A stretch of 64,000 nucleotides of DNA, taken from a phage. A program made the position numbers and the translations under genes. The notes under the pieces are model-generated. The model saw only the letters and a list, made by a program, of their open reading frames with translations, did not search any database and was not told the DNA's origin. Of this stretch, positions 33,800 to 62,948 are shown piece by piece. The DNA is taken from sequence record PZ809289.1; one strand, given 5' to 3'. Positions within the stretch are counted from its first letter, which is position 1. Every line of letters begins with the position of its first letter.

Positions 33800-33870
33800 G
33801 GCCCTGTAGCTGGACGGTCGAGCGAGCGACTCATAATCGCTGGATGGTGGTTCGATTCCACCCAGGGCCA
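33800..33870 (+). tRNA. tRNA with CAU anticodon (Met/Ile2-type)
   Basis: Hand-folded cloverleaf: acceptor GGCCCTG/CAGGGCC, anticodon stem AGCGA/TCGCT with loop CTCATAA, T-arm GGTGG-TTCGATT-CCACC. Confidence 0.65.
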
Positions 33871-34582: not shown

Positions 34583-34657
34583 GTCCCGCTGGTGTAATGG
34601 ATAGCATACGATCCTTCTAAGTTTGCGGTCCTGGTTCGATCCCAGGGCGGGATACCA
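34583..34657 (+). tRNA. tRNA-Arg (anticodon UCU)
   Basis: Acceptor GTCCCGC/GCGGGAT + A + CCA, T-arm CCTGG-TTCGATC-CCAGG, anticodon loop CTTCTAA. Confidence 0.7.
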
Positions 34658-46507: not shown

Positions 46508-47068
46508 ATGTGCCAAGGAACGGCCCTCAAAGGAAATACTATGAAATTTTTAACCCCTATTTATCTAACCTTAATGCACGCCTTCGCTGAACGCGCCATT
46601 GAACGTTTAGACTCAGACCAATATACCTGGTATGAACCTACTTCACGAATGCAAGAGTTTGGTACTCTTCGTCTTGATGGCGGTCGACAAACGGGTAAAA
46701 CAAGTGCCATTGCGCAGTTTGCTGCGGATTGGGTTTCCAAAGGTAATGATGTGATTGTTATGTCGAGTTCTTCGCATCGCTCGCGAGAAATTTGTAATAT
46801 AATAAAACAGGTTTCTAAGGCACACCCACATCTCCAAGTCGAAGGTCCCGGTTTTGTTGTCTATGATACCGTGCGCAGTTTCCTTGATGAAGACAATTTC
46901 CATAAGTATCGTGGACTATCTGTTACTCGATTATTGATTATTATCGAAGAGCCAATGCGCCTTCCAACGATGGATAAGTTCTATGAAGCTTACCAGGTAA
47001 TGATTAATAAATTTATGTGCCAAGGCGACAAGCCTTTGCCTCTGTTCTTTGTGATAGGAATGCAATGA
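46508..47068 (+). CDS. Small P-loop NTPase
   Basis: Walker A GGRQTGKTS and Walker B-like LLIIIEEP; alternative start MKFLT at 46541. Confidence 0.55.
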   Translation: MCQGTALKGNTMKFLTPIYLTLMHAFAERAIERLDSDQYTWYEPTSRMQEFGTLRLDGGRQTGKTSAIAQFAADWVSKGNDVIVMSSSSHRSREICNIIKQVSKAHPHLQVEGPGFVVYDTVRSFLDEDNFHKYRGLSVTRLLIIIEEPMRLPTMDKFYEAYQVMINKFMCQGDKPLPLFFVIGMQ

Positions 47069-47361
47069 TGACCGATGAAGAACTTTTTGAGTTCTGTTAT
47101 TTCTCACGTAAGGTCCGAAGAGAGGACCTTACTGCAAATTTCGAATATGCTTATTTCTACCCACTAGAATACGTGTTCATGACAGGGCCCTTTAAGGGCT
47201 CTCGTTTTAGATGTCATGCTCCTAGTATCCGATTAATGAAACAGGTTCCTTACTTCACTCTCGAGTTCATCTCAGGGCCTTGTAAGGGTATTATTACTCG
47301 TAGTCTCTTGACTTATGACCAAGAGATTCATATGATTTCTGACTGGAAAAAATATGTCTAA
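47065..47361 (+). CDS. Hypothetical protein with internal repeat
   Basis: Repeat LEYVFMTGPFKG / LEFISGPCKG; ATG 47065. Confidence 0.45.
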   Translation: MMTDEELFEFCYFSRKVRREDLTANFEYAYFYPLEYVFMTGPFKGSRFRCHAPSIRLMKQVPYFTLEFISGPCKGIITRSLLTYDQEIHMISDWKKYV

Positions 47362-47572
47362 ATTGACAATTGAAGGCTCTGATGAAGCTCTGAAGATGTT
47401 TGTTGACTGGTTCCATGAACAAGGCGAGCATGGCTTTATGGAATGTTGGGATGGCGGACAATGGAATGGTAAAGAAACCGTTTATCCTAGCACATATATC
47501 TCTGTTCGTGGTGGATATGATGGGATTCATTTAGTTGAATATGATATTGCATCTGATGAGGAAGTGAAATGA
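47354..47572 (+). CDS. Hypothetical protein
   Basis: 72 aa ORF. Confidence 0.45.
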   Translation: MSKLTIEGSDEALKMFVDWFHEQGEHGFMECWDGGQWNGKETVYPSTYISVRGGYDGIHLVEYDIASDEEVK

Positions 47573-47847
47573 TTGAAGATATCAAGGGTTATAAACCGCA
47601 TACCGACGATAAAATCGGTAAAGTGAATGCTATCAAAGATGCTGAAGTTCGTCTTGGGTTAATGTTTAAAGCTCTAGAAGAAGAACATGTTACCTATTAT
47701 ATGAACTTAGATACCGAAGAGGTTTCTGAACAAGAACTAGACCAGGCTCATGAACGCATTACCCAGATTCGTAATGCAATTGACCGTCTTAAAGAAGCTA
47801 GTATGTGGGCTTGTCGCTCTGTGTTCCAACCAGAAGAAAAGTACTAA
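47569..47847 (+). CDS. Hypothetical protein
   Basis: 92 aa ORF. Confidence 0.45.
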   Translation: MIEDIKGYKPHTDDKIGKVNAIKDAEVRLGLMFKALEEEHVTYYMNLDTEEVSEQELDQAHERITQIRNAIDRLKEASMWACRSVFQPEEKY

Positions 47848-47851
47848 AGCA

Positions 47852-47902
47852 GTTTACATCTCCTGTAGGTATGATACTATAAACCTATCAACTACAGGAG
47901 AT
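47852..47902 (+). promoter_or_regulatory. Early promoter cassette with flanking IR
   Basis: Near-identical to denV cassette. Confidence 0.6.
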
Positions 47903-47909
47903 TACAAAA

Positions 47910-48367
47910 TGTCAGAAATTAATTCAGAAGTATTCATCCGCCGCAACAAATTACGTCGTCAGTTCGAAACCGAATTCCGTGAACTGAATGCGTCCATCAA
48001 AAAAGCCGCCATTAAGAGCGGAGTCCCAGCCTTCTTTATTAAGTACTCTAATCACTTGTTGGACCGTGCTATCCAACGTGAAATCGACGAAAAATACGTT
48101 TTTGCTTTATTCAAGCAACTCCATAACCATGTTAAAGAAATTCATGAATTTTTAATCCAGGAACCTCTACCTGATGTAGAATCCGAAATTGTCCCTGGTA
48201 AAGTGTATCGTCCATTGCGTCTCGAAATTACCGATAAAACCTTATGGCTAGGTATGACAGTAGACCGTAAACATCCTGATAAAGGATACTCATTAAAATG
48301 TCGTATGGCATTTGTTAACTCTAAACGTTTAGAAGGTAAAACCAGCACGAAAGTAATCTATCTTTAA
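47910..48367 (+). CDS. Hypothetical protein
   Basis: ATG 47910 (MSEINSEVF...) downstream of early promoter. Confidence 0.5.
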
Positions 48368-48379
48368 TAATGAGGTCTC

Positions 48380-48919
48380 ATGAAAAAAGTATTAGCCACT
48401 TTACTATTGACAGTTAGTATGTCTGCCTATAGCGTAGAGCCTACTTTCAACAGTGAGCAACTCGACAATTTGCATTATGCATATGCTTTCGGTGAACAAT
48501 ACCAAAAGTCGGGAAAGTTCAAAGAAACCCCTAATCAAAAAGGATTAGGATATATTATGGCCGGATTACTATGGCAGGAATCATCCGCCGGAATTAATCA
48601 AGGTTTAAATAAAGATAAGCACCATGCTTATGGCATGTTCCAAAATTACTTGCCTACGTTAAGAAGTCGTGTTCAACAGGTAGGTTGGAAGATGTCTGAC
48701 AAAGAAATAATTCGTATGGTCCAAAAACGACAGAACAGTGCCTCTTGGGCCTACATTGAGCTGTCTTATTGGATTGATGTTCACAAAGGTGACCTGAGAA
48801 AAGCGATTGCTTCTTATAATGCGGGCTGGAACGTCAAAGCAGGCAGTAAATATGCTTCTGAAGTTCTAGAAAAGGCCAATTATCTAAAATCTAAAAAGAT
48901 GTTTGAGGCGGTGTATTAA
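48380..48919 (+). CDS. Secreted lytic-transglycosylase-like (SLT-domain) protein
   Basis: 179 aa; N-terminal signal peptide; motifs WQESS...YGMFQ...SYNAG resemble the SLT family. Confidence 0.55.
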   Translation: MKKVLATLLLTVSMSAYSVEPTFNSEQLDNLHYAYAFGEQYQKSGKFKETPNQKGLGYIMAGLLWQESSAGINQGLNKDKHHAYGMFQNYLPTLRSRVQQVGWKMSDKEIIRMVQKRQNSASWAYIELSYWIDVHKGDLRKAIASYNAGWNVKAGSKYASEVLEKANYLKSKKMFEAVY

Positions 48920-49276
48920 ATGATTAAGCAGATGACTATAGCGCTTATGTTGATTGCTCCGGGAGTATTAGCGTCACAAGTTGGTGATAGTAATAATTCA
49001 ATTGTCGAGTATGCTACCCGTACAGCAAAAGATTATTGTCATCCGAGCAATACTGAATGCATTATCGAATTCAGTTCAAAAATCACAGCTGCTTTTAAAG
49101 ATGGCCAGAACGACGTAGAGCATCGCCGAATGAAAGAGAAAACTCTTTCTAAAAGATACGAGCAACGTCTAAACGTTACTGAATGTATTCCATCTGATAA
49201 AAAGTACAAAGAAATGTGCGCGTCTATGGTAGACAGACTCGTTGACTCATACAACCGAGGATTAAACTCTAAATGA
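48920..49276 (+). CDS. Small secreted Cys-containing protein
   Basis: 118 aa; signal peptide MIKQMTIALMLIAPGVLAS; four Cys. Confidence 0.5.
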   Translation: MIKQMTIALMLIAPGVLASQVGDSNNSIVEYATRTAKDYCHPSNTECIIEFSSKITAAFKDGQNDVEHRRMKEKTLSKRYEQRLNVTECIPSDKKYKEMCASMVDRLVDSYNRGLNSK

Positions 49277-49740
49277 TTATTGATTATATTAAGGGCGATA
49301 TCGTCGCCCTGTTTCTTCAAGGTAATAATGTTGCACACGGGTGCAACTGTTTCCACACAATGGGTTCAGGTGTAGCTGGGCAATTGGCTAAGGCTTATCC
49401 GCCTATTCTCGCTATCGATAAAACTACTTATTTAGGCAATTTGGCAAAACTTGGCACGTTTACTCAAGCTACAGGTAATAATGGCCAAATTTGCTATAAT
49501 TTATATACCCAATACGAACCAGGCCCTAATCTTGATTATGGTGCTTTAGTAAACTGTATGATAGAATTAAATCAACAAGCAAAAGGTCTTTTGTTTAAAC
49601 CAAGAATTTATATCCCTCGCATTGGTTGTGGTATTGCTGGTGGTGATTGGGACAAGGTTTATCAATTGATTAATTTGTTTACTCCTGATATTAATTTAGT
49701 GGTGGTAGATTATGAAAGCCCATTACCCGCATCCGTTTGA
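49273..49740 (+). CDS. Macro-domain protein (ADP-ribose binding/processing)
   Basis: 155 aa; GDIV...NNVAHGCNCFHTMGSGVAGQLAKAYP and IPRIGCGIAGGDW resemble macro-domain signatures. Confidence 0.55.
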   Translation: MIIDYIKGDIVALFLQGNNVAHGCNCFHTMGSGVAGQLAKAYPPILAIDKTTYLGNLAKLGTFTQATGNNGQICYNLYTQYEPGPNLDYGALVNCMIELNQQAKGLLFKPRIYIPRIGCGIAGGDWDKVYQLINLFTPDINLVVVDYESPLPASV

Positions 49741-49924
49741 CCCTAAAAACAAAGCGGAAATTATTCGACGCTGGACCGAAACACGAGTAACTAAATGCCC
49801 TATAAAAAGTCAACACAACACCGATAAATGGTATATTGGTGAATATGTTGAATATACTTTTATAGATAAAAATAAACGTAAACAGCATGTAGAAGAATAT
49901 TGCTTAAAGGTGCAATGGTTATGA
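49712..49924 (+). CDS. Small basic hypothetical protein
   Basis: 70 aa ORF. Confidence 0.4.
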   Translation: MKAHYPHPFDPKNKAEIIRRWTETRVTKCPIKSQHNTDKWYIGEYVEYTFIDKNKRKQHVEEYCLKVQWL

Positions 49925-50106
49925 GTCTGAGTAAAGAACAGAAAGATAAATTGTTTGAGCTTATCCATGAACTTCTAGATGAGCATGCAGAAGCAAATTC
50001 TTTTTATGATGAATATGGCCCGCTATCTCCCGAACATCAGGAAGAATTTGTCAATCGATTTGATGAGAAAGAAAACGAATTAATAGCTTATGTGAATACG
50101 CTTTAA
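49900..50106 (+). CDS. Small acidic hypothetical protein
   Basis: 68 aa ORF. Confidence 0.4.
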   Translation: MLKGAMVMSLSKEQKDKLFELIHELLDEHAEANSFYDEYGPLSPEHQEEFVNRFDEKENELIAYVNTL

Positions 50107-50115
50107 GAAGGTAAT

Positions 50116-50853
50116 ATGGCAAAGGAATTCCATTATAATTACTTGACTGTAATAAAAACCCATAAGGCAAATTATTACTATGTAGGTAAACACTCCACTG
50201 ATAATCTTTCAGACGGGTATTATGGAAGTGGTACGGTAGTTAAAAATATTTGTAAAAAGCATCCTTATAAAACTCGTATATTAGAATTCTTCGAATCTGA
50301 AGAAGAGGCGTATGCCGCCGAAATTCCTTTAGTTGAAAAGGCTAAATTAAAATATGGTAAGCATTCTTTAAATTTTGCTGATGGCGGAAGAGGTAAAAAG
50401 AAAGGAACCAAATTATCTAATTTAACTAAACAGAAAATGTCTAGGTCTAGAAAAGGAGTTAAATGGAGCAAAGCCAGAATAGAAGCTTCTAAATTCACCA
50501 CTTCTAATAAAGGTTTAAACCATTATTCCAATAGAATAGGATTTAGTGATGAGCATAAAGCTAAAATAGGATTAGCCTCTAAAAAATTAAAAGGATTTAA
50601 ACATAGCGCTGAAACCATAGAAAATATGAGTAACGCCAAAAAGGGCAAAAAGAATCCCATGTACGGTAAAAAGGGCGCTATGGCAGGAAAACCTTCTCCT
50701 ATAAGAAACGAATCTTGGAAATTTTACGATGAATTAAAACTCTTATGGGAAGAATCCAATAAGCCTTCAGCATATATGTTTAAAAAGATAGCTATAAGCA
50801 AAGGTTATCCTAATTGCTCTTATAGAGGAGTTGTATTTAAATGGCAAGCTTGA
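50116..50853 (+). CDS. GIY-YIG homing endonuclease (seg-like)
   Basis: 245 aa; YYVGKHS...YYGSG GIY-YIG motif; Lys-rich C-terminal region; 3' end overlaps tk start. Confidence 0.75.
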   Translation: MAKEFHYNYLTVIKTHKANYYYVGKHSTDNLSDGYYGSGTVVKNICKKHPYKTRILEFFESEEEAYAAEIPLVEKAKLKYGKHSLNFADGGRGKKKGTKLSNLTKQKMSRSRKGVKWSKARIEASKFTTSNKGLNHYSNRIGFSDEHKAKIGLASKKLKGFKHSAETIENMSNAKKGKKNPMYGKKGAMAGKPSPIRNESWKFYDELKLLWEESNKPSAYMFKKIAISKGYPNCSYRGVVFKWQA

Positions 50854-51413
50854 TGTTTCACTATGCGGCGATGAATTCCGGGAAAACCGCTTCATTGCTA
50901 ACGGCAGCTCATAACTACAAAGAACGTGGTATGGGCGTACTCCTTTTAAAGCCTGCGATAGACAATAGAGAATCAAGCCATAGCATTTCGTCTCGTATAG
51001 GGATTAGTCAAGAGGCTAATGCCGTGACTCCGGATATGGACCTATACGAGTTCTATCGTTGGGCTGAATCTCAAAAAGATATCCACTGTGTATTTGTGGA
51101 TGAAGCACAGTTCTTAGAACCTGCACAGATAAAACAACTGGCAAAGATAGTAGACAATTATAATGTTCCGGTTATGTGCTATGGACTAAGAACTGATTTT
51201 CAGGGTAAACTGTTTCCTGGCTCTGCTGAATTACTCGCTACAGCAGATAAACTCGTTGAGTACAAAGGTGTGTGCCATTGCGGCCGTAAAGCTACTATGA
51301 CGGCTCGTATCCAGGATGGTATCGCAATTAAGGACGGCGCCCAAGTTTCTATAGGTGGCAACGATTCTTACGTGTCATTGTGCAGGAAGCACTGGATAGA
51401 AATAACGAGTTGA
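50841..51413 (+). CDS. tk: Thymidine kinase
   Basis: 190 aa; P-loop AAMNSGKTASL; C-terminal Cys pattern CHCGRKAT...VSLCRKHW; matches T4 tk. Confidence 0.9.
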   Translation: MASLMFHYAAMNSGKTASLLTAAHNYKERGMGVLLLKPAIDNRESSHSISSRIGISQEANAVTPDMDLYEFYRWAESQKDIHCVFVDEAQFLEPAQIKQLAKIVDNYNVPVMCYGLRTDFQGKLFPGSAELLATADKLVEYKGVCHCGRKATMTARIQDGIAIKDGAQVSIGGNDSYVSLCRKHWIEITS

Positions 51414-51420
51414 GGGTATT

Positions 51421-51699
51421 ATGGACCTAAATTCAAAGATTTTAATTCTAGCGTTCGCTGTGGCCATTTCTTATATTGTTCTTTCGCCTATCATGGATGA
51501 TGTGGCTTACAAAAGAGAGATAGAGGTTGTAGCAGCGACGTATAATGCTAATAATAAAGAGTGTCCTAATAAAAATGGGATGGATTTAATTAAAGCGCAT
51601 TATATGCTTTCCATTACCTCGCCTATACAGAGGAATTGGGTTGAATATAATTTTAACGACGTGTTCTATTCTTATTGTCGTAAGCTTAAAAAGCTATAA
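51421..51699 (+). CDS. Small membrane/secreted protein
   Basis: 92 aa with N-terminal hydrophobic segment. Confidence 0.45.
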   Translation: MDLNSKILILAFAVAISYIVLSPIMDDVAYKREIEVVAATYNANNKECPNKNGMDLIKAHYMLSITSPIQRNWVEYNFNDVFYSYCRKLKKL

Positions 51700-59605: not shown

Positions 59606-60616
59606 ATGACTCGTACTGAATACATCAATGCCTTTACTACGTATATCACTACCAACACCCCTCCGTTAACCCCATACGAGGTAATAGTTTCTAATATCAA
59701 TAAATGGGTCGACCAAATTGATGATGCATTATCGCGCTGTTTCAAAGCTGAAATCGAAAAGATTGCAGGCCGTTTGTGCATTCATGATATCATTAAAACA
59801 TTTAAAGGTTCTCGACTGCTTTCGCGCCTGGTCAATAAGGACATCCTTTCTGAGTTCGGTAAAGAGAAATATCCAGGTTCCAACCGTGTTGTTAACTACA
59901 AATGGTTTGGTGATACCATAAAAGGTTATATCAAAATTAAAGGTATGGACCCTAATAGTTTATTTCCGCAACGTTGGGTTAGCGAATTCAAGGCTAACTC
60001 TGCATTAATTCTCAAAGCGGCCTCTAAAACTATAGTTTCCGGTGATTGTCGTACTATTCACCCGATGGCTAATTGCATGATTAAAACAAATAGTTATAAA
60101 GGAAAAGCTATTATTTCTGTTATTTGGTCACCTAATAGGAAACCTAAAGATGATGTGGAAGTTGTAAAGTATCAAGATATTGCTTACGATACCTTGAATA
60201 CTATCGAACAAGCTTTAGCTCTGATGGATACCGTAGAGAAATATGAGACCCAAGAAGTTAAACACCACTTAGGCTGGAAAGGATATGAAGTCTTAGTAAC
60301 AGTCCGTGAAATCAAATGTACCGTTCCAAAAACTGATGCTGAAATTTACAAAGAAAAATGTGAGGAAATTGTGAACACTGATAAAGAGCCTGCTACATTA
60401 GAAGATTTGATTAACGACTTGAACAGCCCTATCATGGCCCCTACACCAATTACTAAATCCAAGTTACCGGAAGTCGTTGCCTTGGAAAAAGCGTATAAAG
60501 ACGCCCTTGCTATCAACAAAAAACTGGCCGGGCAATATACTGCTGCCAAGAAACTTTGGGAAGAGTCTACCAATCGTTTAGACCGTCTTGAACAAGCTCT
60601 GGAGCTGTTGAAATGA
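59606..60616 (+). CDS. Hypothetical protein
   Basis: 336 aa; coiled-coil C-terminus; early promoter upstream. Confidence 0.5.
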   Translation: MTRTEYINAFTTYITTNTPPLTPYEVIVSNINKWVDQIDDALSRCFKAEIEKIAGRLCIHDIIKTFKGSRLLSRLVNKDILSEFGKEKYPGSNRVVNYKWFGDTIKGYIKIKGMDPNSLFPQRWVSEFKANSALILKAASKTIVSGDCRTIHPMANCMIKTNSYKGKAIISVIWSPNRKPKDDVEVVKYQDIAYDTLNTIEQALALMDTVEKYETQEVKHHLGWKGYEVLVTVREIKCTVPKTDAEIYKEKCEEIVNTDKEPATLEDLINDLNSPIMAPTPITKSKLPEVVALEKAYKDALAINKKLAGQYTAAKKLWEESTNRLDRLEQALELLK

Positions 60617-60834
60617 AATACCAATTAGCTGAAGATATTGACCAAACTATTCCTGATTGGAATGCCATTATTAAAATTGTCGAACGTCGTGAAAAAGCTT
60701 CTAAGAACGTTCCGAACTGTCCGGAATGTGGAACTGAACAGGTTCAATTGGTCCATTGGCAGACTAGTAATCTTCGTTACAAATGCCGCCATTGTAAACA
60801 TAAATTTGAGCGAGAAGAAAATGGCAAAGCGTAA
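60613..60834 (+). CDS. Zinc-ribbon protein
   Basis: 73 aa; CPECG...CRHCKHKF. Confidence 0.5.
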
Positions 60835-60839
60835 AGAAT

Positions 60840-61057
60840 ATGTAGAGGCTGCCGATAAGGCAGTCCGCGAACTTACTCTAGCTTATTATAAAGAGCACGG
60901 TAAATTTCCGGACAGTTATTCAGTATTGAAATCTGCTTTAACTCGCTCGTATAATAATATACTATCTGATGTGTATAATTTAAAATATGAGCACATGGAA
61001 AAATATGGAACAGAACTTGACCGTTCTGAAGCATTCAAACAAATATTAGGAATTTAA
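60840..61057 (+). CDS. Hypothetical protein
   Basis: 72 aa from ATG 60840. Confidence 0.4.
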
Positions 61058-61058
61058 A

Positions 61059-61322
61059 ATGTTTAAAGTTTATGGTTATGATTCAAATATTCACCGTTGT
61101 GTTTTCTGTGATAATGCCAAACGACTGCTTGATGTTAAGAAACAACCTTACGAATTCATTAACGTGATGCCGGAAAAAGGTGTATTTGATGATGAGAAGA
61201 TTGCTCAACTCCTGGCTGCGCTTGGTCGCGAATCTCAAATCGGTTTGACCATGCCGCAAGTATTTGCTCCGGACGGAACTTCTATTGGTGGCTTTGACCA
61301 ACTGCGAGCGTATTTCAAATGA
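61059..61322 (+). CDS. nrdC: Glutaredoxin/thioredoxin NrdC
   Basis: 87 aa; MFKVYGYDSNIHRCVFCDNAKRLL... CxxC active site; matches T4 nrdC. Confidence 0.85.
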   Translation: MFKVYGYDSNIHRCVFCDNAKRLLDVKKQPYEFINVMPEKGVFDDEKIAQLLAALGRESQIGLTMPQVFAPDGTSIGGFDQLRAYFK

Positions 61323-61480
61323 TTGAATTAATGTTGGTTGTTTTGTATCTTATCATCGGTATTGGTTATGCTAAGACCCTAGCTAAATTAGATGATTCAG
61401 GTGACTTTTGTTGGTGGTTGACGTCTATGATTTGTTGGCCTTTATTTCTGGTTGGTGCTTCATTCTGGAACTTCAAATGA
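61319..61480 (+). CDS. Small membrane protein (53 aa, below ORF-track cut-off)
   Basis: ATGATTGAATTA start; hydrophobic MIELMLVVLYLIIGIGYAK... Confidence 0.35.
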   Translation: MIELMLVVLYLIIGIGYAKTLAKLDDSGDFCWWLTSMICWPLFLVGASFWNFK

Positions 61481-61785
61481 TTGAATTAAACGAACAAACC
61501 ATTTTTCTAGGTGATGGTACCGAAGATGACCTGGAATATAAACTATACGAATATATGGTTTGGTTGGCTAAAGCAGAAGGTATAGACTTTGCTGTAGCCC
61601 ATCCATATGGCGAGAACACTGTTGTAATCGGCGGCACCGCTTACGAAGTCCAATGGCAATACGTTGGCCTTGAATCTGAAGAATTTGAAGAAGATGAACA
61701 CGGTGATTGGCATCCAGTCGGTCCTTGGTACTGGGAACACGGTGAACCTGATTTTGAAGTAAGTAGTTGGTGGTGTGACCGTTAA
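61477..61785 (+). CDS. Acidic hypothetical protein
   Basis: ATG 61477 (MIELNEQTIF...), same first 4 codons as preceding small gene. Confidence 0.4.
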   Translation: MIELNEQTIFLGDGTEDDLEYKLYEYMVWLAKAEGIDFAVAHPYGENTVVIGGTAYEVQWQYVGLESEEFEEDEHGDWHPVGPWYWEHGEPDFEVSSWWCDR

Positions 61786-61892
61786 GCCATGGTATGTCGC
61801 TCGGTGGGATACGATAGAACCTACCGAGCCAGAGGAACCCGTTTACAACGATTCCGAAATAGAGTATAATGAACCTTCAAACAATGATTTAA

Positions 61893-62102
61893 TTGATATG
61901 GAATATGGGTTTTACTATGAAAACTGAACTGATTTATACTGAAAAGTTAAATGGCGGTAAAGTCTGGAAACTTCTTATTAAAGGAAGTCCTACTGATCAG
62001 TTTATGGCCACTTGTGTAGGGTTATACACCCGTCCTACTAAAAAGATGATTCGTCAATTTAAACGGTTGCATCGCTCGTTTTATAGTACATTTGAAAAAT
62101 AA
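61893..62102 (+). CDS. Hypothetical protein
   Basis: 69 aa ORF. Confidence 0.4.
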   Translation: MIWNMGFTMKTELIYTEKLNGGKVWKLLIKGSPTDQFMATCVGLYTRPTKKMIRQFKRLHRSFYSTFEK

Positions 62103-62137
62103 TAAATACCCTTATCTAATAATGGTAAGGGTTTATT

Positions 62138-62611
62138 ATGTTGTTGACCGGCAAATTATACAAAGAAGAAAAACAAAAACTTTATGATGCACAATGTGGT
62201 AAGTGTTTGATTTGTAAACGTGAATTAAACCCTGATGTTCAAAGTAACCACCTTGACCACGACCATGAATTGAACGGGCCAAAAGCCGGTAAGGTTCGTG
62301 GTTTACTATGTAACCTGTGCAATGCTGCAGAAGGACAAATGAAGCATAAGTTCAACCGTTCTGGTCTTAAAGGTCAAAACGTTGACTACCTCGAATGGTT
62401 AGAGAATTTGCTGGTCTATCTGAAAGCTGATTATACTGAAAACAATATTCATCCTAATTTCGTTCCTGATAAAACCAAAGAGTTCAGCAGGTTGGGTAAG
62501 GAAGAAATGATTGCTGAAATGCTTTCACACGGAATGACTTATAATGAATCTGCCACTAAGAAACAAATGGTGGATTCATTCAAAAAACAACTGAGGAAAT
62601 CGCTTAAATGA
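62138..62611 (+). CDS. 49: Endonuclease VII (Holliday junction resolvase) gp49
   Basis: 157 aa; MLLTGKLYKEEKQKLYDAQCGKCLICKRELNPDVQSNHLDHDHELNGPKAGKVRGLLCNLCNAAEG near-identical to T4 Endo VII. Confidence 0.95.
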   Translation: MLLTGKLYKEEKQKLYDAQCGKCLICKRELNPDVQSNHLDHDHELNGPKAGKVRGLLCNLCNAAEGQMKHKFNRSGLKGQNVDYLEWLENLLVYLKADYTENNIHPNFVPDKTKEFSRLGKEEMIAEMLSHGMTYNESATKKQMVDSFKKQLRKSLK

Positions 62612-62720
62612 TTAATTTTTATGGCTACACATTTTATGCTTTAGCCGAATCTCTGAATGATGCGGTGCGTATTATGGGTGTTGAGTATCCTGCTCAATGG
62701 TTATTTGTTGTAACTAACAT

Positions 62721-62948
62721 GTGGGTTCTTTAATGAATAAATTTCGTAATGCTGTTTCTGATATCCTGGCTAATATAACATTGGTTCTGTTTATCGTATG
62801 CCTTTTAATCCTGGCTATTCCGTTTGGATTGCTGTTCATGATTATTGGTGCTCTGAGTACTGAAAAAGGTCTTGAAGGGTCCGAGTTCGACAAACGAATC
62901 CAGGCTGTTCATAGTGTTATTGCAAAAATGATGAAGGTGAAAGAATGA
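62721..62948 (+). CDS. Small membrane protein
   Basis: 75 aa, hydrophobic core. Confidence 0.4.
   Translation: MGSLMNKFRNAVSDILANITLVLFIVCLLILAIPFGLLFMIIGALSTEKGLEGSEFDKRIQAVHSVIAKMMKVKE

Follow-up and report, generated by a model that had tools for sequence, protein, structure and literature searches.

Among the closest described systems for the phage macro protein studied here are the macrodomains DarG, TARG1, and SCO6735, in which DarG K80, TARG1 K84, and SCO6735 Q85 are equivalent positions (PMC9411070). SCO6735 is without the Lys/Asp dyad and has Gln85 in the Lys position; its Q85A variant is inactive, and its activity also depends on Asn27 and Gly128 (PMC9411070). The enzyme efficiently cleaves the thymidine-linked ADP-ribose that DarT makes on DNA, and it shields cells from DarT (PMC9411070). 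For phages, Aravind and colleagues have argued that most macro domains are aimed at small ADP-ribose (ADPr) derivatives (PMC9503650). In phage T4, tk.4 was the single significant hit when a transposon library was grown on a DarTG2 host, a clean tk.4 knockout was DarTG2-sensitive, and the gene was renamed adfM; in the same study, a T4 vs knockout grew poorly on minimal medium (preprint, bioRxiv 10.1101/2025.11.20.689424). T4 without adfA and adfN remains DarTG2-resistant (PMC11825919), and a role of tk.4/adfM as a DarTG2 protector fits this continued resistance.

Orthology and synteny with T4-like phages

We analyzed a stretch of 64,000 nucleotides of phage DNA (PZ809289.1), hereafter the window, for which orthology, synteny, fold, active-site residues, and signal-like N-termini were computed. 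Table 1 lists the region of interest, an early-gene block that is conserved in T4-like (Straboviridae) phages and is carried here by a Dhakavirus-type genome. The DNA at 47700-51500 was 97-98% identical to that of the Dhakavirus-type coliphages IME540, WG01, QL01, and Bp7, and the macro protein of QL01 was 100% identical to that of the window. The T4-type gene order regB-vs.1-vs-tk.4-tk.3-tk.2-tk was kept in T4, Bp7, and the window, with the block located at 59763-62740 in T4 (NC_000866) and the genes of Bp7 carrying these very labels. The regB gene, which also had a PHROG endoribonuclease match, occupied an equal position in Bp7 and T4, and its place just upstream of the triplet anchors the synteny with T4. 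Besides the DUF7202, DUF7438, and thymidine kinase genes, the Pfam and PHROG scans found a NUMOD3 homing endonuclease downstream.

Table 1 Features of the conserved early-gene block in the window.
Feature	Position	Strand	Basis
regB, site-specific endoribonuclease	47909..48367	+	Pfam REGB_T4, E 1.5e-68; start 47909 inferred
vs.1 orthologue, SLT-like, 179 aa	48380..48919	+	T4 orthology; PHROG 600
vs orthologue, "valyl-tRNA synthetase modifier", 118 aa	48920..49276	+	T4 identity; PHROG 1256, E 3e-34
tk.4/adfM orthologue, stand-alone macrodomain, 155 aa	49273..49740	+	T4 identity; Pfam Macro; AF2; Foldseek
tk.3 orthologue (DUF7202)	49712..49924	+	Pfam DUF7202, E 2.5e-37; tk.3 in Bp7
tk.2 orthologue (DUF7438)	49915..50106	+	Pfam DUF7438, E 1.4e-18; start inferred from Bp7 length
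tk, thymidine kinase	50841..51413	+	ORF; annotated tk in all close relatives; end of conserved block

Two starts in Table 1 were inferred: the REGB_T4 alignment begins at residue 57 of the ORF at 47750, and the DUF7438 alignment at residue 10 of the ORF at 49900, with tk.2 of Bp7 being 192 nt long. The vs.1, vs, and tk.4 ORFs are genuine genes. The initial annotation had described them as three packed or overlapping genes on one strand, and their coordinates, starts, stops, and quoted motifs were all present. The vs.1 stop TAA (48917-48919) directly abuts the vs ATG (48920), the vs TGA (49274-49276) and the tk.4 ATG (49273-49275) form an ATGA overlap, and the tk.4 and tk.3 ORFs overlap by 29 nt. 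The vs.1 orthologue contained the motifs WQESS, GMFQN, and SYNAG, and the tk.4 orthologue contained GDIV, GSGVAG, and IGCGIAGG; the motif residues were invariant among homologues of the Vs.1, Vs, and Tk.4 proteins of the window. Related sequences were found in 2013 phage records for vs.1, 796 for vs, and 2734 for the macro gene. A promoter and terminator scan of 47000-51600 found promoter-like sites no more commonly than in shuffled sequence, and the terminator-like matches were all inside coding sequence.

Pairwise identities to the T4 proteins were 66% for Vs.1, 45% for Vs, and 53% for Tk.4, the Tk.4 alignment being full-length (155 aa vs 155 aa). The initial annotation had started from the premise that T4 has no macro domain, a view that is contradicted by T4 tk.4 itself, which is labelled "phosphatase; contains A1pp phosphatase motif" in RefSeq. 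It had also regarded a periplasmic transglycosylase with a possible partner protein as unusual, but the matches of vs.1 to SLT and of tk.4 to A1pp were already published in 2006 (PMC1524935). The macro finding is genuine but already known, and the claim of novelty is rejected.

Fold and family placement of the macro protein

The third ORF of the triplet passed the Pfam threshold for the Macro family (PF01661) with 33.4 bits, the cut-off being 22 bits, and an E-value of 4.9e-8 over profile positions 2-117 of 118, and matched PHROG 335, "phosphatase", in the PHROG scan. The AlphaFold2 model, which was built with 50 homologues as input, had a pLDDT of 94.2 and a pTM of 0.88. In a Foldseek search against the PDB, this model gave 121 matches at E<=0.001, and the top ones were all macrodomains. 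The best matches were TARG1, Poa1p, Bacteroides BT1257, and the DarG proteins of M. tuberculosis and T. aquaticus, with E-values from 1e-8 to 1e-6 and TM-scores of about 0.75. The predicted structure confirmed a three-layer alpha/beta/alpha macro fold for the Tk.4 orthologue, as the initial annotation had proposed from motifs. Poa1p, a near structural relative, acts on ADP-ribose-1''-phosphate.

When the family profile was searched against the PDB, the E-values were 9e-20 for BT1257, 4e-17 for TARG1, 4e-17 for SCO6735, and 7e-15 for Poa1p, while DarG scored more weakly (4e-10 to 2e-8). These scores suggest that the Tk.4 family is nearer to the BT1257/TARG1/SCO6735 group than to DarG. The Tk.4 orthologue is classed here with the SCO6735/BT1257/TARG1 (ALC1-like) macrodomains as a putative ADP-ribosylglycohydrolase, which would be active on DNA carrying thymidine-linked ADP-ribose (dT-ADPr). 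A heuristic for Sec signals was positive for none of the 50 macro homologues, and the protein would act as a stand-alone macrodomain in the cytoplasm.

The closest described protein is T4 Tk.4 (AdfM, anti-DarT factor Macrodomain; NP_049723), which has the same length and the same position between vs and tk.3, and which shares 15 of the 15 family-invariant residues. The two proteins differ in the second phosphate-binding loop, which reads GAGIGKG in T4 Tk.4 but GCGIAGG in the protein of the window, where it matches the consensus of the family.

A Gln-type active site

The 15 residues that were invariant across the 50 homologues included H22, N25, Q80, G118, and G120. Alignment of the family profile with TARG1 by hhalign (probability 98.7%; the TARG1 sequence used was identical to that of PDB 2lgr) placed K84 opposite the invariant Q80 and D125 opposite A122. 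The Lys84/Asp125 dyad of TARG1/OARD1 was therefore absent from the macro protein, which has Gln80 and Ala122 in the aligned positions. In a HMMER alignment to SCO6735 (5e3b), H24, N27, and G128 stood opposite H22, N25, and G120, and the equivalence of SCO6735 Q85 with Q80 is transitive through TARG1 instead of coming from a direct alignment. The match of Q80, H22, N25, and G120 with SCO6735 points to an active site of the SCO6735 type in Tk.4. The two proteins belong to the same macrodomain class, with Gln in place of Lys, the His, Asn, and Gly residues kept, and a near-identical PRIGCGxAGGxW loop. SCO6735 differs in being a bacterial housekeeping or protective enzyme and in having a longer mobile loop. 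The overall similarity was low: the profile comparison reached 4e-17, yet the single-sequence search aligned two short stretches only.

DarG, the DarTG2 antitoxin (5m3i, 5m31, 7omu), has the same fold as the macro protein (Foldseek E about 1e-6, TM 0.70-0.73), and DarG and Tk.4 probably share the same substrate, thymidine-linked ADP-ribose on single-stranded DNA. The catalytic Lys of DarG (Lys80) was absent and replaced by Gln80, which was invariant across the 50 homologues. The C-terminal DarT-binding domain was also absent, the 155-aa protein consisting of the macro domain only according to Pfam. The macro gene lies between vs and tk.3 (DUF7202) with no darT next to it, and the Pfam scan revealed no ART domain. 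With the catalytic Lys, the DarT-binding domain, and a neighbouring darT all missing, membership of the DarG family was ruled out.

A probable role against DarTG2

We consider it likely that the tk.4/adfM macrodomain counters DarT2 by de-ADP-ribosylating DNA with chemistry of the SCO6735 type, and that Vs.1 and Vs have separate functions and are linked to it by synteny. In the proposed mechanism, the DarT2 toxin of the host would attach ADP-ribose to thymidines in the single-stranded DNA of the phage, from which Tk.4 would strip it, and the removal of ADP-ribose would restore replication in hosts carrying DarTG2. Q80, held by N25, would orient the substrate so that an activated water can attack it; the chemistry is probably SCO6735-like and probably not Lys-based as in DarG and TARG1. 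The DarTG2 phenotype is taken from the literature and comes entirely from T4 genetics, and the window protein is 53% identical to T4 Tk.4; the role of the window gene against DarTG2 is suggested by its orthology with T4 tk.4. The initial annotation had already suggested a reversal of DarT-type DNA ADP-ribosylation, in agreement with the tk.4/adfM genetics of the 2025 preprint.

The yeast enzyme Poa1p, an ADP-ribose-1''-phosphate phosphatase, was among the best fold and profile matches and has an HxCNC motif in common with the macro protein. Together with the RefSeq label of T4 Tk.4 ("phosphatase; A1pp motif") and the comparative argument made for phage macro domains (PMC9503650), this counts in favour of a macrodomain that mainly handles small soluble ADPr derivatives and not ADP-ribosylated DNA; O-acetyl-ADP-ribose, the ADPr-1''-phosphate of RNA repair, and immune signals or toxins derived from ADPr are candidate substrates. 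A sponge gene of the Acb2/Tad1 family lies two genes upstream, which indicates that anti-signalling functions are present in the neighbourhood and adds to this possibility. The T4 orthologue nevertheless has a specific DarTG2 phenotype, having been the only significant hit of the screen, and the constellation of H, N, Q, and G is that of SCO6735, an enzyme with high activity on dT-ADPr DNA. We therefore consider a main role in handling small ADPr derivatives rather unlikely, and activities on small ADPr derivatives and on ADP-ribosylated DNA are not mutually exclusive.

The phage ADP-ribosyltransferases Alt, ModA, and ModB target arginine, but the esters that TARG1 and SCO6735 cleave are those of Glu and Asp, a difference that weighs against a macrodomain that reverses or tunes the ADP-ribosylation (or RNAylation) of host proteins by these phage enzymes. 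T4-like phages do encode three ARTs (PMC9503650), and TARG1 and SCO6735, the nearest solved relatives, act also on Glu/Asp-linked ADP-ribose on proteins (PMC9411070). On the other hand, Tk.4-like macro genes also occur in records of Pseudomonas, Vibrio, Campylobacter, and Felix-O1-like phages, from which Alt or Mod systems are not known, and the phenotype of the T4 knockout is defence-specific. A role in reversing Alt or Mod modification thus seems very unlikely, and de-ADP-ribosylation of phage DNA remains our preferred explanation.

Vs.1 as a putative exported SLT-like enzyme

The closest described systems for Vs.1 are the Family 1 lytic transglycosylases of GH23 (Slt70, MltF, MltE, EtgA) and the g-type lysozyme. 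Compared to these enzymes, Vs.1 is very divergent: it has one small domain and an SLT score below the Pfam threshold (16 bits vs 21.3 for the window protein), and neither single-sequence nor profile searches against PDB sequences gave a useful match to a solved structure. Among the homologues, 45 of 51 matched Pfam SLT at E<=0.01, the best with an E-value of 1.3e-7. The alignment showed that the catalytic Glu67-Ser, GxxQ, and YNAG motifs were invariant, and the structure prediction supported an SLT fold, lysozyme-like and with the catalytic Glu in the E-S motif. A signal peptide was predicted at about residues 1-18. Every Vs.1 homologue had a signal-like start, and the crude Sec-signal heuristic was positive in 49 of 51; when 98 ORFs of the window were taken as background, 5 scored positive, vs.1 and vs among them. 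The reading of this gene as an SLT-like protein with a signal peptide is supported by the heuristic, the invariant motifs, and the predicted fold, with the Pfam score sub-threshold. Vs.1 is most likely an exported peptidoglycan glycosidase of the GH23/SLT type, either a lytic transglycosylase or a lysozyme-like enzyme.

Export-type features of Vs

For fifty years, Vs has carried an assignment as a factor that binds and modifies the cytoplasmic valyl-tRNA synthetase (ValRS) of the host. Compared to T4 Vs (tau peptide, PF26829), the window protein is 45% identical, has the same size, and shows the same overlap or abutment with vs.1 and tk.4, and no feature separates the two; homologues of Vs carry PF26829 (ValRS_modifier). 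A Sec signal peptide was predicted at about residues 1-18, with cleavage between VLA and SQ. The N-terminus in the window reads MIKQMTIALMLIAPGVLA followed by SQ, and all 28 homologues had a variable hydrophobic N-terminus with a small-x-small end. The Sec-signal heuristic was positive in 27 of the 28 Vs homologues, as against none of the 50 members of the macro family. Four Cys residues were invariant in the 28 homologues (here C40, C47, C89, and C100), with spacings of C-x6-C and C-x10-C in the window, which bears out the initial description of a small protein that has four Cys and a signal peptide.

The predicted mass of mature Vs was about 11.5 kDa. The tau factor purified by Müller and Marchin in 1977 was reportedly roughly 10 kDa, to which the predicted mass is close.

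Distant relatives showed similar features. One distant Vs homologue (P0252) had an N-terminal lipoprotein lipobox (LSGC); its gene is flanked by a vs.1-like SLT gene on one side and by macro and tk genes on the other. In Acinetobacter phage AC4, vs.1 is abutted by the gene of a 109-aa protein that has a signal peptide and four Cys, and an hhalign comparison of this protein with Vs aligned all four Cys (probability 81%, E = 1e-5). The vs gene abutted or overlapped vs.1 wherever the two were compared, that is, in the window, T4, Bp7, GiZh, mogra, G8, AC4, and a very distant T4-like contig (L008). The Vs family is small and phage-only: a profile scan of 1.84 billion proteins picked up 8 representatives, with no functionally assigned cellular homologue among them. 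A search of Vs against PDB sequences gave nothing useful, and literature searches on Vs/ValRS and on the function of Vs.1 turned up the 2025 screen and the domain note of 2006 but no other recent work.

Set against the assignment as a ValRS modifier, the signal-like N-terminus, the four invariant Cys residues, and the lipobox variant point to export; judged by sequence, export looks like a property of the entire Vs family, which conflicts with the cytoplasmic target assigned to it. Vs might be an exported, disulfide-bonded periplasmic protein that acts with Vs.1, for instance as a regulator or inhibitor like Ivy or Spackle, an idea that we hold tentatively and regard as unlikely overall. Alternatively, the N-terminus of Vs may have another role.

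Relationship of the three genes

The cluster idea of the initial annotation would make the three genes a single functional module, in which the macro domain acts jointly with an exported transglycosylase and a small partner protein. The three genes are closely packed, coupling of their translation is probable, and the order SLT-Vs-(x)-macro is retained in the very distant T4-like contig L008. In the unrelated Ounavirinae phage Sf18, vs.1-like and Tk.4-like macro genes lie on the same strand 2.7 kb apart (the Sf18 macro protein is 33% identical), an arrangement that indicates a looser linkage of vs.1 and macro genes beyond the T4-like phages. The view that the vs.1-like and macro genes are distant outside T4-like phages was dropped in light of this one complete Ounavirinae genome.

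Against a single module, the predicted compartments differ, with the signal heuristic positive for 0 of 50 macro proteins compared to 49 of 51 for Vs.1 and 27 of 28 for Vs, and the family sizes are far apart (2734, 2013, and 796 records for the macro gene, vs.1, and vs, respectively). Because the whole T4 early region keeps its gene order, synteny says little in favour of a module. The phenotypes are also independent, tk.4 alone explaining the DarTG2 phenotype and vs alone the minimal-medium phenotype. The triplet turned out to be part of a conserved T4 block in which vs has an unrelated assigned function, an outcome that the initial annotation had itself named as refuting its cluster idea, and nothing supports a joint action of the macro gene with the two exported proteins. 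We regard a single module as the least likely of the readings considered here, and the macro gene is probably not part of a functional unit with vs.1 and vs. Vs.1 and Vs would instead have separate functions and accompany the macro gene by synteny.

Implications

For the macro gene, our results are a confirmation and not a discovery, and they indicate that Dhakavirus-type phages carry it with every family-invariant residue intact. The mechanistic addition is that phage Tk.4/AdfM belongs to the Gln-type (SCO6735/BT1257) branch of macrodomains and not to the Lys-type DarG branch, suggesting that Tk.4/AdfM proteins are not simply captured DarG antitoxins. Q80, N25, and H22 are indicated as targets for mutagenesis. 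The export-type features of Vs and the constancy of its pairing with Vs.1 form the sole point that could change textbook annotation, and the sole real potential for novelty at this locus. If Vs were an exported partner of Vs.1, the ValRS assignment would need to be re-examined, or Vs would have two lives.

Organization of the vs.1-vs-tk.4 region and its relatives

The gene order regB-vs.1-vs-tk.4-tk.3-tk.2-tk in the window matched that of T4. An additional ORF of the NUMOD3 homing endonuclease family overlapped the tk start by 13 nt and was missing from the close Dhakavirus-type relative Bp7 and from most relatives. Only 13 of the 685 matching records in a DNA search covered at least 80% of positions 47700-51500. 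The endonuclease gene has the appearance of a mobile-element polymorphism that occupies the T4 tk.1 position. The mechanically called regB ORF spans 47750-48367, with the RegB profile alignment beginning only at residue 57; translation probably begins instead with the ATG at 47909 (MSEINSEVF...). Two tRNA genes were also identified in the window.

The ORF at the T4 vs.4 position matched the Acb2_Tad1_hairpin family, whose members are anti-CBASS/anti-Thoeris signal sponges, and therefore places an anti-defence gene upstream of the block with the macro gene, at a distance of two genes.

In Shigella phage Sf18 (MF158044.1 42261-46323), a Felix-O1-like phage (Ounavirinae), a vs.1-like SLT gene with a predicted exported product follows rIIA and rIIB. 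A gene for a protein with a Tk.4-like N-terminal domain lies 2.7 kb downstream, with polynucleotide kinase and spanins in between. In Aeromonas phage avDM3, the order was regB, vs.1, a 75-aa ORF, a 146-aa ORF and a Tk.4-like macro gene, with no recognizable Vs at this locus.

Coordinates of features in the window and in other phages
Feature	Location	Strand	Details
tRNA genes	33800-33870 and 34583-34657		tRNA-Met (CAT) and tRNA-Arg (TCT); ARAGORN
Acb2/Tad1-type ORF	47569-47847	+	92 aa; Pfam Acb2_Tad1_hairpin, E 1.3e-15
vs	48920-49276	+	vs family, as is T4 vs
NUMOD3 homing endonuclease	50116-50853	+	245 aa; between tk.2 and tk
vs family, another locus	L005 2495-2824
vs family, very distant T4-like contig	L008 3001-3327
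avDM3 146-aa ORF	L004 2929-3369		lipoprotein-like; begins MKKTIAALFALSVYGC
avDM3 macro gene	L004 3366-3848		Tk.4-like
Sf18 SLT gene	L009 42261-42809		vs.1-like
Sf18 264-aa protein	L010 530-1324		N-terminal domain Tk.4-like (33% identity)

Export-type features of Vs

In Vs, which carries the annotation 'valyl-tRNA synthetase modifier', the N-terminus resembles a Sec-type signal and this character is conserved. Four Cys are invariant, and one distant homologue carries a lipoprotein lipobox. The vs gene always abuts vs.1, which encodes a predicted exported SLT-like protein. These sequence features and this adjacency are in conflict with Vs acting purely in the cytoplasm.
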